From the NCBI RefSeq assembly GCF_001431415.1, contig NZ_LDJI01000015.1, positions 28,618 to 60,617 of the forward strand: 32,000 nucleotides of DNA, given 5' to 3'. Numbering within the stretch: the stretch's first letter is position 1; the number at the start of each line of letters is the position of its first letter. The notes under the pieces are model-generated. The model was given only the letters and a program-made list of their open reading frames with translations, had not been told where the DNA came from and ran no database searches. Position numbers and translations under genes: made by a program. Source of the DNA: Stenotrophomonas humi (GTDB taxonomy: Bacteria > Pseudomonadota > Gammaproteobacteria > Xanthomonadales > Xanthomonadaceae). This document shows positions 28,930-32,000 of this stretch, piece after piece.

Positions 28930-29967
28930 TCAGGCGCAAAGGTCGCCGATCTCGCGTTCGACGAGCCGGAAACGCTCCTTGACCTCTTCACCCGCATAAA
29001 AATCGAGCATGTCTTCCTTAGTGAGGGTCCCCTCGGCGAGGAACTTGATGAGGTAGCGCTGATTGAATTCGGCAAGAAGGATTCCTTTCTCGATCTGCGC
29101 GAGGATCTGCTTCATATTTTCGATGTTGGCGGTGACGAGATGCTTCACCAACGCCATGTCTCGCGCATCCTTGATCAGCCGGTTCACGATGATCTTGAGG
29201 ACGTCGGTGTCGAGCTCGAGCGTCTTAGCATTGAGCGCAATGTCGCGCGCCAGCATGTAAGCGATGGCGAGATTGCGATAATCGCCCTTCTGAGAATCTA
29301 TAATTGCGATCAGGCCGATACCGGGAAGGAACTTCAGGTCCTGGACGGCGGCGAGGATGCTGTTGTCGACAAGCGATGCGTCGAACACGATGATTCCGGC
29401 CTGACCGTCGCGATTGGCCTGCGCTTCAAGCAGTTGGCTCCAGGCGGTATCCGCTTTTTTGGTGAAGACGTCCTTAGTCTGGATGTCCCCCAGGCGGATG
29501 CTCTTGTCGAACTTGCACTCGATCACGATCCGCTTGCCGCTGTCGCCGGCTAGATGGCAGACAATATCGCCTGTCTTGTTGCGACGGATCATACCGGCGC
29601 GATCGCCGGTCAGTTCGATCCTGTCTGTGATCTTCTGGCGATCGAAAAACTCCGAAAGGAAGTCGGCGATATCAGCCTCGGCGAGCACCCCCTTCACTGC
29701 CGACCGATAGAAAAGTTCCTTCTTCATGTCGAAGATAAACTTCAGGCTTTCGAGCTCGGTGCCGAGCTCGTTCGCGGTTCGCGAGAGGAAGCTTGAAAGC
29801 CGGTCCTCCATGAGCGCCAGAACGCCAATATAGAGGGCCTTGTGGAGCTGCTCGTCGCGATCCGCGGCGGCGAGCTTGTTGAAGAATTCGAACAGGATTC
29901 TGTTGTCGACCTCGAATGCACCGAACTGAACGCGAATATTTTTCTGATCGAGGCTGACAAGTGGCAT
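28930..29967 (-). CDS. PD-(D/E)xK nuclease-like protein (345 aa), last gene of the HerA operon
   Basis: Start MPLVSLDQ at 29967, in frame within ORF 28930..30147 and 1 nt after the KTSC stop. The core GVLAEADIADFL..TGDIVCHLAGDSGKRIVIECKFDKS..GQAGIIVFD fits an E..D..ExK restriction-endonuclease-fold motif. It is flanked by helical N- and C-terminal regions. The fold call is from motif reading only. Confidence 0.5.
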   Translation of the reverse strand: MPLVSLDQKNIRVQFGAFEVDNRILFEFFNKLAAADRDEQLHKALYIGVLALMEDRLSSFLSRTANELGTELESLKFIFDMKKELFYRSAVKGVLAEADIADFLSEFFDRQKITDRIELTGDRAGMIRRNKTGDIVCHLAGDSGKRIVIECKFDKSIRLGDIQTKDVFTKKADTAWSQLLEAQANRDGQAGIIVFDASLVDNSILAAVQDLKFLPGIGLIAIIDSQKGDYRNLAIAYMLARDIALNAKTLELDTDVLKIIVNRLIKDARDMALVKHLVTANIENMKQILAQIEKGILLAEFNQRYLIKFLAEGTLTKEDMLDFYAGEEVKERFRLVEREIGDLCA

Positions 29968-29968
29968 T

Positions 29969-30196
29969 TTAGACCCGGCTGTAACGATAGTGACCCTTGA
30001 TAGACGCCGCGAGGAACTCCCCCTTCGATCCTGCCTGATCGAAGGCCTGAGCGAGCTGCGGCGGCACTTCATAATATTGATAGCGACTGCCGTTGAGAAA
30101 TTCGACTTCGAGCAGCAGCTGATCCTCGTCATAGCGGATTGCAGCAATGTTCGACGATGTAAAGGGAGCGAATTCGTGCCAGGCCATGTGTGTCAT
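29969..30196 (-). CDS. KTSC-domain protein (75 aa)
   Basis: MTHMAWHEFAPFTSSNIAAIRYDEDQLLLEVEFLNGSRYQYYEVPPQLAQAFDQAGSKGEFLAASIKGHYRYSRV matches the KTSC pattern (S.I..i.Yd...LeV.F.nG..Y.Y..VP......a.SkG.f....Ik..Y). Its ATG (30196-30194) overlaps the herA-like TGA (30195-30193). Confidence 0.7.
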   Translation of the reverse strand: MTHMAWHEFAPFTSSNIAAIRYDEDQLLLEVEFLNGSRYQYYEVPPQLAQAFDQAGSKGEFLAASIKGHYRYSRV

Positions 30197-32000
30197 TCCT
30201 TTTTGGGTGGAGTGTGGACCGGGTTCTGCTGGAGCCAGGTCTCGACAAAATAGCGATAGTCCGCGGGGACATGGGTCTTCAGATTCCAACCGCCCGGCGT
30301 CATCGATTCTTCGGGCGCGACCTCGTCGCAGATTAGTGGATCCTGGCTGTCGGGACGACGATCGCGGGGTGGCGCCTGGATCATGGTGCGCATCGGTAAT
30401 CGAACCGCTTCACCTAAGATGATCGCCTCACCGGTGCGCAGCACTGGCAGCATACTTGTCAGGCCCTCAAGATTGTCCGAGAGCGCGCTGGTCACATGCG
30501 AGCGATCGGTGGAATTGCTCAACCGCATCGCGAAGAAGGTCCCGCACTGCGACAGGATCGTCGGGTTGATCTCAGCCGGGCGTTGGCTGACGATCATCGC
30601 GCCAATCCCATATTTGCGACCTTCCTTGACGATACGCTGCGTCGCGATCGAGGCTGCGCTGCTCCCATCGCCGCCAAGATAGCTGTGCGCTTCCTCCATA
30701 ACGACGAGCAGCGGACGCTCGCGGCCACCTTCCGATAGGTTCCGGGCCCAAAAGAGGCCGTCGTAGAGAACGCGCAGGATATTGCCGATTATGTCGTTCG
30801 TCACGGTCGAGGGGATGCCCGACAGGTCGAGGATAGTAATCGGCTTGTCGCTGCCGAGCCATTGGCCGACCAGGTCGGCGAGCGTCTTAGTCGTTTTCCC
30901 GTCGAGCTCGGGATGCCAGTCACCTGCCTTCAGCAAGAAATTGTAACGGGCGACGCGAAGCCGGGCACCGAGTGCCTCGAGCGCCCCTCTTATGTTAATG
31001 CCGTCAGGGAGATAATTGATCTTCTCCTTGTCCGCCCCGATATTCTTGACCTTGCGGAAACGAGGCGGGATGCCCGCTTGGGCGTCACCCACCAACTTCG
31101 CTTGTGAAGCGTCGAGCTCATAGGCCCAGTTGGCCGGGTTGAGGGGGGTCGCATTGTCGGCACTGAAATAGGTGCCAAAATCTCGACAATACAACTCATA
31201 CCAGAGCTTGTTGAGTGAGAAAGGAACCGGGCTGTCAGCGGTAATGCTGGCCGGATCAACGCCCTCGATGGGTTGCGCGACCAAACTCGCGATCTTGGCT
31301 TCCAGAACCTGTTCAAGAATAATGTTGCGTGCCTTGCCGTCCTGCGGAAGGCTTCCGAGCGTCACCCGCATGAGCTCATCGAAGCTCAGCGCCCAGAAGG
31401 GAATGCACAACTGATGCTCATTGGCGTTGCGAGCATCCGGACTGATCTTGAAGATATTCGCTCGATCGCCGAGTGCCTTGCCATACTCGCCGTGGAGATC
31501 GAGCACAACGATCCGCGCTGACGGAAAGCGGCTTTCGTCTGACAAGACATTCAAGAGCCCCGCGACCGTCGTCGACTTGCCCGAACCGGTTGTCCCGACC
31601 ACGGCGCTGTGACGGGTCACCAGCTTGTTGACGTCGACCAGCGCATCAATCGACTCGCTGCCCGCGACGTAACCGACGCGGACGAGGTGGTTCTGCTTAT
31701 CCGACCGGCCATAGATCGCCTGAAGATCGGCTTCGGAAACGAGATGGACCTCGTCCTCGAAGGTTGGATACTGCGAGATACCGCGCTGAAACCGGCCCGT
31801 CCGATAGCCCTCGCCGATCAGTTGGACCGTCATCCAGCGTAGGCCATTGGGCATCGAAAGTGCGGCCTTCTCAGGAACCGCGCTCGCCCCGACCTGCGAC
31901 ACGATCCCATAGAGGTCGACATAACCAATCGGGATTTTAACGAAGCTGCCGATCTGGCCGATCTTGTGGCCCTGGCCGTGGACAAAGCTCAGGCCCGAGA
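30193..32000 (-). CDS. HerA-family (DUF87/FtsK-like) ATPase, 5' end beyond the window
   Basis: Walker A VVGTTGSGKST, Walker B LLVVMEEAHSYL and IVSQRPAEI are present. The track start at 31902 is an internal GTG. The frame stays open to 32000 (..SGLSFVHGQGHKIGQIGSFVKIPIGYVDLYGIV SQVG..), which looks like the HerA N-terminal barrel. Confidence 0.8.
   Translation of the reverse strand, partial: SGLSFVHGQGHKIGQIGSFVKIPIGYVDLYGIVSQVGASAVPEKAALSMPNGLRWMTVQLIGEGYRTGRFQRGISQYPTFEDEVHLVSEADLQAIYGRSDKQNHLVRVGYVAGSESIDALVDVNKLVTRHSAVVGTTGSGKSTTVAGLLNVLSDESRFPSARIVVLDLHGEYGKALGDRANIFKISPDARNANEHQLCIPFWALSFDELMRVTLGSLPQDGKARNIILEQVLEAKIASLVAQPIEGVDPASITADSPVPFSLNKLWYELYCRDFGTYFSADNATPLNPANWAYELDASQAKLVGDAQAGIPPRFRKVKNIGADKEKINYLPDGINIRGALEALGARLRVARYNFLLKAGDWHPELDGKTTKTLADLVGQWLGSDKPITILDLSGIPSTVTNDIIGNILRVLYDGLFWARNLSEGGRERPLLVVMEEAHSYLGGDGSSAASIATQRIVKEGRKYGIGAMIVSQRPAEINPTILSQCGTFFAMRLSNSTDRSHVTSALSDNLEGLTSMLPVLRTGEAIILGEAVRLPMRTMIQAPPRDRRPDSQDPLICDEVAPEESMTPGGWNLKTHVPADYRYFVETWLQQNPVHTPPKKE

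Follow-up and report, generated by a model that had tools for sequence, protein, structure and literature searches.

Analysis of a 32,000-nucleotide stretch of the Stenotrophomonas humi genome (contig NZ_LDJI01000015.1 of assembly GCF_001431415.1, positions 28,618 to 60,617 of the forward strand; hereafter the window, numbered from its first letter) revealed that its right-hand end very probably carries genes two to four of an operon, sir2-herA-ktsC-p345, in which sir2-herA-ktsC is an abortive-infection system of the Paenibacillus SIR2-HerA type. As judged from the sequences of relatives, the first gene, encoding a SIR2_2 NADase, would start about 1.3 kb past the end of the window. On sequence and model evidence, the locus appears to be a known system in a four-gene variant, whose new part is the product of the last gene, the 345-amino acid (aa) protein P345, a member of an undescribed, promiscuous family of accessory nuclease-like proteins. 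The best explanation of the locus as a whole, namely a known SIR2-HerA-KTSC core with a coupled P345 nuclease effector, stands in our judgement about evenly between right and wrong. An original prediction, made from the letters of the window alone, had described the same genes as an uncharacterised defence operon of a HerA-family ATPase, a KTSC-domain protein and a nuclease-like protein.

The three genes are tightly packed, co-directional open reading frames (ORFs) on the minus strand, an arrangement that the original prediction had described correctly and that is borne out by the ORFs and by Pfam matches of the first two products to DUF87 (1e-34) and KTSC (5e-22). The window holds the 3' 95% of herA (30193..32000; 601 of about 634 codons). 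Its frame is stop-free to base 31998 and therefore open to the edge, so that the GTG start at 31902 is spurious, produced by the cut at the window edge; beyond it lie about 32 codons, and in a DNA alignment with the Luteibacter locus (L007) base 32000 falls 97 nucleotides (nt) inside herA. The KTSC gene (PF13619; 72 aa) occupies 29969..30187 and the P345 gene (345 aa, containing the motif TGDIVC...RIVIECK) 28930..29967; the TAA of the former (29971-29969) is separated by a single nucleotide from the ATG of the latter (29967), just as had been noted. The ATGA overlap of herA and KTSC that had also been noted is present at 30196-30193, but it does not contain the conserved start: translation from the ATG at 30196 would give a product of 75 aa, whereas in relatives the herA stop is TAA and KTSC starts at an ATG followed by the reading MAW..., which here lies at 30187, 5 nt past the herA stop and 9 nt past a minus-strand AAGGA (30201-30197). 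This AAGGA, read from the sequence as the Shine-Dalgarno of the KTSC gene, lies within the final codons of herA, and GAAGGAAT is kept at the same site in the KTSC Shine-Dalgarno region of relatives. The 72-aa product of the conserved start matches annotated relatives. DNA from other genera is 84-90% identical to the operon, with protein identities of 92-97% for P345, 91-93% for HerA and 80-90% for KTSC, and the nucleotide differences in P345 distribute over the first, second and third codon positions as 10/8/93. Given that the differences are almost all at third positions, we concluded that herA, KTSC and P345 are real genes under purifying selection. No terminator-like site was found on the minus strand inside the window operon, and the single promoter-like match there on this strand is at chance level.

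Examination of HerA bore out the claim of a defence operon built around this ATPase. In the window HerA, a hexameric ATPase of the HerA/FtsK type, both Walker motifs are intact (A, GTTGSGKST; B, LLVVMEEAH), and the protein matches the PADLOC anti-phage HerA model PDLC04105 at 7.2e-150 over its full length (32-573 of 576). HerA of a related locus (L084) matches the HerA of Paenibacillus sp. 453MF (PDB 8wiv_A) at 8e-190 over residues 7-590, the 634-aa HerA of the clade aligning to residues 8-581 of that chain only, and SIR2 of relatives matches the Paenibacillus SIR2 (PDB 8w9l_A) at 1.9e-93. In near-identical loci, the SIR2 upstream of herA also matches the PADLOC SIR2 model at 8.6e-131, again over its full length. 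Together, the PADLOC and solved-structure matches of HerA and SIR2 indicate that the core is a known, named system (SIR2-HerA in PADLOC, Gao_Her_SIR in DefenseFinder) and not an uncharacterised one; a match to an already named system is what the original prediction itself had listed as speaking against novelty. The Paenibacillus system is said to be one of the Gao et al. 2020 systems. SIR2 lies immediately upstream of herA in 51/51 related loci with at least 3.4 kb of upstream flank, in keeping with the earlier guess that the gene beyond the edge could be a Sir2. The gene order in Aureimonas loci that are 97% identical to the window is SIR2_2 (400 aa), HerA (634), KTSC (72) and P345 (345); the same order was found in Luteibacter, which is the closest DNA relative of the window, in another Stenotrophomonas, in Brucella and in Shimia, and SIR2 is also directly upstream of herA in L084, L085, L089 and L091. 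In none of the relatives is the gene upstream of herA a DUF4297 gene, this gene being SIR2_2 in all of them. A database protein from Stenotrophomonas humi (ABB26_08800) is 100% identical to the window P345, and the search for SIR2 homologues returned no entry named S. humi among the matches listed.

The KTSC protein matches Pfam PF13619 over the whole of the model (1-58 of 58; 77.8 bits, cut-off 25) and also PDB 4rgi and 7x8c. It further aligns, at 2.7e-11, with the Paenibacillus HerA chain 8wiv_A at residues 633-696, a region within the C-terminal arm domain, which has been defined as residues 576-696 (PMC11472057). In three loci (L037, L038 and L082; 697 aa in L037) HerA and KTSC are fused in one protein of about 697 aa, with P345 directly after it. 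Because KTSC matches the end of the same HerA chain and HerA::KTSC fusions occur, the KTSC ORF can be read as a split-off HerA domain: by sequence comparison, the gene is the detached C-terminal tip of the HerA arm domain, encoded as a separate 72-aa protein, and not the new adaptor originally proposed. KTSC remains with SIR2-HerA also in loci that have no P345, and a small KTSC gene is found just upstream of the ATPase in 13 of the 19 evaluable P345 loci that do not have HerA. In two loci (L039, 5925-7778; L072, 5787-7637), KTSC forms the C-terminal domain of a defence-type protein of about 617 aa that also contains Schlafen AlbA_2, HATPase_c_4 and Fic-like_C; behind its gene come a further KTSC gene, this one free, then an OLD gene and P345.

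The Paenibacillus sp. 453MF system has been characterized by cryo-electron microscopy and phage-defence assays (8W9L/8WIV/8WLD; PMC11472057). In close homologues, a SIR2 ring and a HerA hexamer dock into a complex of ~1.1 MDa, the formation of which activates NADase, ATPase/helicase and nuclease (PMC11472057). Depletion of NAD+ arrests the infected cell, protection from phage being shown for homologues only (PMC11472057 and PMC13434337). The sir2 and herA genes overlap there and, to judge from relatives, probably here too and, besides the close similarity of both proteins, the expected common mechanism is a SIR2 ring and a HerA hexamer activating NADase, ATPase and nuclease; the differences are that KTSC forms the end of the Paenibacillus HerA and a separate 72-aa gene here, that P345 follows 1 nt later here, and that the host here is a gammaproteobacterium. 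The E. coli Sir2-HerA 'Nezha' system and the E. coli types I-III follow the same logic of a SIR2 NADase with a HerA ATPase and act by abortive infection (8J4U; PMC13434337), and in a type III system phage proteins and DNA ends gate NAD+ depletion (PMC13434337). The E. coli proteins of 8j4u are only distant relatives of those described here (HerA 3.9e-29, SIR2 3.4e-14). Neither a KTSC gene nor a fourth gene is mentioned in PMC11472057 or PMC13434337.

Nucleases have been associated with HerA and with other NTPases (nucleoside triphosphatases) before. In DUF4297-HerA, a HerA hexamer works with a PD-(D/E)xK-type nuclease effector, which gives the arming of a nuclease by HerA a precedent; in that system the nuclease gene takes the place of SIR2, whereas the family described here retains SIR2, and P345 is extra, downstream and of an unrelated family. 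P345 matches no model in PADLOC, which presumably includes models for DUF4297, and the HerA matches other solved defence-type HerA chains, which are not assigned to DUF4297-HerA individually, only at ~1e-46 to 1e-51. McrBC- and Mrr-type (type IV) restriction likewise has an NTPase gene followed by a small PD-(D/E)xK nuclease gene, or a stand-alone Mrr, but no sequence-level relation to P345 was found, and the partners of P345 are of the HerA, OLD and ABC/SMC types and not McrB. The claim that a HerA-KTSC-nuclease association was undescribed did not hold, since the three were named together in passing, as components of prokaryotic conflict systems, by Iyer, Burroughs, Anantharaman and Aravind (2022; PMC9503650, section 3.7.1, 'unpublished observations'). 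This single sentence comes with no family definition, census or data, and it places the endoDNase (DNA endonuclease) in place of the sirtuin, arguing for mutual exclusivity, whereas sirtuin and P345 co-occur here in 51/51 loci.

P345 falls in none of the described families searched, with no match in Pfam, NCBIfam, PADLOC, PHROGs or the PDB sequences. Its homologues number about 2,700 when clustered at 90%, and an exhaustive profile search gave 302 clusters at 50% identity, with lengths mostly of 320-385 aa and no large fusions; about 60% identity is kept across phyla. All of the 34 close, 110 intermediate and 32 distant (23-40% identity) sequences compared share E97, D134, E150 and K152 without exception, and the resulting signature, E97...D134...E150-x-K152, is that of a conserved PD-(D/E)xK catalytic site. 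The stretch of highest conservation is not the active site; it is formed by the N-terminal helices YIGVLALMEDRLSSF (residues 46-60). Two AlphaFold2 (AF2) models of P345, the second built from the 110-sequence alignment (mean confidence score pLDDT, predicted local distance difference test, 73.5 and 75.2), are of medium confidence; they begin with a small beta element and two long helices, continue into a central core (about residues 97-225) and end in a C-terminal helical bundle. They place PD-(D/E)xK-like strands and helices at about residues 116-224, with D134 and E150/K152 at or on the core strands 135-138 and 146-152. A Foldseek search of BFVD, a collection of viral models, returned a Mrr-domain restriction endonuclease as the top match (E 7.6e-6), another match at E 1.3e-5 and, behind the top match, many restriction endonuclease, RecU and VRR-NUC entries. 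The sole recurring Pfam family among the homologues is PDDEXK_15 (PF24608), which they match over residues 88-205 with 22-26 bits (E 1e-5 to 1e-4) against a gathering threshold of 27 bits, while the window P345 itself gave no match; by these scores PDDEXK_15 is a related fold and P345 falls outside the family. The invariant residues and the BFVD match agree with the earlier view of a nuclease-like protein, and we take P345 to be a predicted active PD-(D/E)xK nuclease, whose motif is present and whose fold is supported by the models but not proven. Literature searches on KTSC in defence and on the PADLOC candidates PDC-S06 and PDC-S46, which are met below, returned nothing on the P345 gene.

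To characterize the distribution of P345, we took a census of one genome per species over 185,579 species, 289 of which have a P345 relative, and analyzed the best 80 of the 289 loci; counts of upstream flanks take in 79 of the 80 and the gap statistic 78. SIR2-HerA-KTSC-P345 is contiguous in 50/80 loci, although in three of these SIR2 falls beyond the end of a short contig, and in four more an OLD gene or an SMC-like pair is inserted in front of P345, so that the recurrence of the HerA-KTSC-nuclease triplet anticipated in the original prediction was found. The gene upstream of P345 in the other loci codes for the PADLOC candidate PDC-S06 (9/80), an OLD-family ATPase-TOPRIM protein (6/80), the PADLOC candidate PDC-S46 (5/80), an SMC/LmuB-like ATPase (3/80) or an 826-aa LmuB-like protein together with a 344-aa protein (2/80); one locus has no upstream flank. 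In all loci with an upstream flank (79/79) P345 is co-directional with, and the last gene behind, an NTPase gene. The gap between the upstream stop and the start of P345 has a median of 1.5 nt and is at most 10 nt in 72/78 loci, regardless of the upstream gene.

Several individual loci depart from this pattern or extend it. In a Patescibacteria locus (L094, 1-9047) containing a BREX PglX-like methylase, PglZ and BrxL, P345 lies 139 nt after brxL; this is the only locus with a gap of more than 100 nt and with a Lon-like ATPase as partner. In four Bacteroidota loci (L033, L043, L053 and L065, e.g. of Sphingobacterium and Pedobacter; ~10001-16443 in L033) P345 overlaps by 4 nt into the Wadjet gene jetA (DUF3375), which is followed by jetB (DUF4194/MksE) and jetC, giving long co-directional strings such as SIR2-HerA-KTSC-OLD-P345-JetABC in the first three and a string without the inserted gene in L065. 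Upstream of PDC-S46 or PDC-S06 there is, in L040 (7336-7623), L080 (7411-7704) and similar loci, an ORF of about 95 aa with no Pfam match, which may be a further small component of these candidate systems. P345 is essentially absent from plasmids, with one exception, and from E. coli, where 5,426 complete genomes gave no match to the SIR2-HerA-KTSC-P345 cassette. Two other accounts of the gene were considered and ruled out. P345 is not the conserved flank of a defence hotspot, the downstream genes being unconserved, with at most 4 loci sharing a family, and it is not a phage gene, having been found in 0 of 50,697 phage records and in 2 of 2.9 million IMG/VR contigs.

The invariable position and orientation of P345, its coupling at 1-2 nt behind NTPase genes and its co-occurrence with KTSC are the grounds on which we favour the coupled-effector explanation. 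According to it, P345 would be an optional, translationally coupled fourth component, a predicted PD-(D/E)xK DNA nuclease whose synthesis keeps pace with that of the ATPase. Acting jointly with the upstream ATPase, it would serve as a second effector, one directed at DNA. Its task could be the cutting or processing of DNA with nicks or exposed ends, whether produced or bound by the upstream machine. The same attachment to HerA, OLD, PDC-S06, PDC-S46 and SMC/LmuB-like ATPases, often with KTSC nearby, would make P345 a portable module. That P345 acts as a second, DNA-directed effector jointly with the upstream NTPase we hold to be close to an even call, if slightly on the lower side of it. A wider version of this proposal, in which P345, usually with a small KTSC, is a plug-in nuclease for unrelated DNA-acting defence NTPases, perhaps including BrxL, and is recruited via KTSC or via a common DNA intermediate such as nicks or ends, is a tentative one that we consider rather doubtful.

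A number of observations weigh against the coupled-effector explanation. The P345 sequences of Bacteroidota do not group by partner type, which speaks against a protein interface specific to the partner. In Aeromonas, in Pectobacterium and on a Sphingomonas plasmid there are clean SIR2-HerA-KTSC loci that lack P345; no remnants of P345 were found in these three-gene loci, and no differences in KTSC were found between P345-positive and P345-negative loci. Since SIR2-HerA-KTSC occurs cleanly without the nuclease, P345 is an optional fourth gene and not a core partner. The protective Paenibacillus construct carries only 486 nt after herA (PMC11472057). Searching the PDB with the P345 models gave nothing below 1e-3, restriction endonucleases heading both lists. 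In addition, the window genome's own SIR2 lies beyond the window edge, and we infer its presence from relatives only.

That P345 is optional and has not co-diversified with its partners keeps alive another explanation, in which, behind the same core, P345 acts on its own as a restriction-type nuclease, type IV/Mrr-like or similar, that borrows the transcription and translation of the operon and works independently of the ATPase. The clades of P345 are mixed with respect to the six partner types, loci that have lost it show an unchanged KTSC and no remnant, and it is found also 139 nt after a BREX brxL and adjoining a Wadjet jetA; moreover, its best structural match is a Mrr-domain endonuclease, and ~60% identity is kept across phyla while the neighbours vary. 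Were the gene free-standing, however, both orientations, a promoter of its own and variable spacing would be expected. Instead, P345 is co-directional in every locus, the gap to the upstream stop is 10 nt or less in 72/78, P345 is never alone and never directly behind a gene outside the NTPase classes in the 79/79 flanked loci, and KTSC is enriched beside it even where HerA is missing. We therefore regard an autonomous P345 as possible but on the whole unlikely.

Considerably less probable is the explanation that P345, behind the same core, is a sensor or regulator, its nuclease-like fold reading a DNA feature (ends, nicks or modified bases) and gating or licensing the upstream NTPase system; it could also limit self-damage. 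The top conservation in the N-terminal helices (46-60) suggests a conserved interaction surface, and the partner NTPases of P345 all come from families generally known to act on DNA, both of which would suit a sensor, as does the gating of the NADase by DNA ends in type III SIR2-HerA (PMC13434337). The E...D...ExK signature, however, is invariant family-wide and points to real catalysis, the Paenibacillus core works without P345, and natural three-gene loci exist.

The explanation closest to the original prediction, that HerA, KTSC and nuclease form a self-contained, undescribed three-gene system with KTSC as a new adaptor and the upstream gene merely as a possible extra, we consider very improbable. 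It could appeal to the presence of the triplet in at least 54 species-level loci and to the sirtuin-less HerA, KTSC and endoDNase variants mentioned in PMC9503650, but it is contradicted by the census, with SIR2 in 51/51 evaluable loci, by the close homology of HerA and SIR2 to a validated two-gene system, and by the findings that KTSC belongs to the Paenibacillus HerA and that P345 is optional. Equally hard to credit is a housekeeping DNA-repair module like archaeal HerA-NurA end resection with P345 in the role of NurA: HerA is homologous to repair HerA (matches to NCBIfam models and PDB 4d2i) and P345 is nuclease-like, but the NCBIfam repair HerA models score far under the anti-phage HerA models, which match best, and below their own cut-offs, the partner is SIR2, no NurA-family match was found in a Pfam search of the window proteins and their homologues, the distribution is patchy (289/185,579 species), the proteins are 94-97% identical across alpha- and gammaproteobacteria, indicating horizontal transfer, and the surroundings consist of defence-island genes and integrases.

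Next to the cassette and outside the operon lies a convergent tyrosine recombinase gene (27697..28776, plus strand; Pfam Phage_integrase 3.4e-12), the neighbour that had been predicted to be a recombinase. DNA homology between the window and the Luteibacter locus spans 27598-32000, with 84% identity up to the window edge, and the recombinase gene is co-inherited with the cassette in Luteibacter; L084 shows the same gene order. The operon part has a G+C (guanine plus cytosine) content of 57.7%; that of the recombinase gene beside it is 67.7%, and the first 2,500 bases of the window reach 66.6%. The compositional difference that had been estimated by eye is present, but positions 3500-27000, which make up most of the window, have a G+C content of 59.2%; as the bulk of the window is also low in G+C, the operon is no lone low-G+C island. 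In the region 428-2568 (plus strand), an ORF carrying a sigma-70 domain of the extracytoplasmic function (ECF) type precedes a ChrR-like cupin anti-sigma ORF; this high-G+C left end has the look of ordinary chromosomal DNA and sets the baseline of 66-67%. Two genes of the Zot family of filamentous-phage assembly ATPases, in opposite orientation (16369-17523, plus strand, Pfam Zot 3.8e-13; 20016-21257, minus strand, 1.9e-14) agree with the phage-rich surroundings described earlier and would fit two adjacent inovirus prophages or remnants of such; in Luteibacter, DUF3653 and REP_ORF2-G2P genes lie beside the corresponding cassette. Between the phage region and the recombinase, a 98-aa ORF (26505-26801, plus strand) with weak, sub-threshold matches to HTH_3, phage CI repressor and DUF3693 (~6e-4 each) probably codes for a protein resembling prophage repressors. 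The gene that had been taken for KfrA-like debris, a charge-rich, coiled-coil-looking ORF of 144 aa (27124-27558, minus strand), has no Pfam match itself, but its equivalent in Luteibacter is a 305-aa KfrA_N gene; the DNA homology ends at 27598, just before the ORF, which may be a diverged or truncated KfrA-like gene.

The neighbours of the cassette in relatives are Lamassu, CBASS Cap15, Wadjet and toxin-antitoxin genes and integrases. A Lamassu/ABC-3C-like trio (Cap4_nuclease+CTD7, MC3 and LmuB_C) lies directly downstream of the cassette in the Aureimonas loci (L001-L003, 11268-14928), and a Cap15 CBASS effector gene upstream of it in Stenotrophomonas sp. TWI169 (L085, 4530-6289). PrlF/YhaV or TacA/acetyltransferase toxin-antitoxin pairs are found upstream of the cassette in several loci.

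For annotation, these results mean that the locus should be recorded as SIR2-HerA and not as a new system, with the KTSC ORF as a detached HerA domain; the split of KTSC from HerA offers a natural handle on the role of the unexplained C-terminal arm of HerA. The main lead is P345, a compact, highly conserved nuclease-like protein whose gene is attached to the 3' side of ATPase-based defence genes of at least six kinds. Should P345 work together with these ATPases, the "single-gene" PADLOC candidates PDC-S06 and PDC-S46 and some OLD and SIR2-HerA systems would really be multi-component, and cloning the annotated core alone may miss part of the phenotype. If the plug-in proposal is true, a second-stage effector would be shared across many defence systems, and SIR2-HerA would have an unnoticed dual-effector form, NADase plus DNase.

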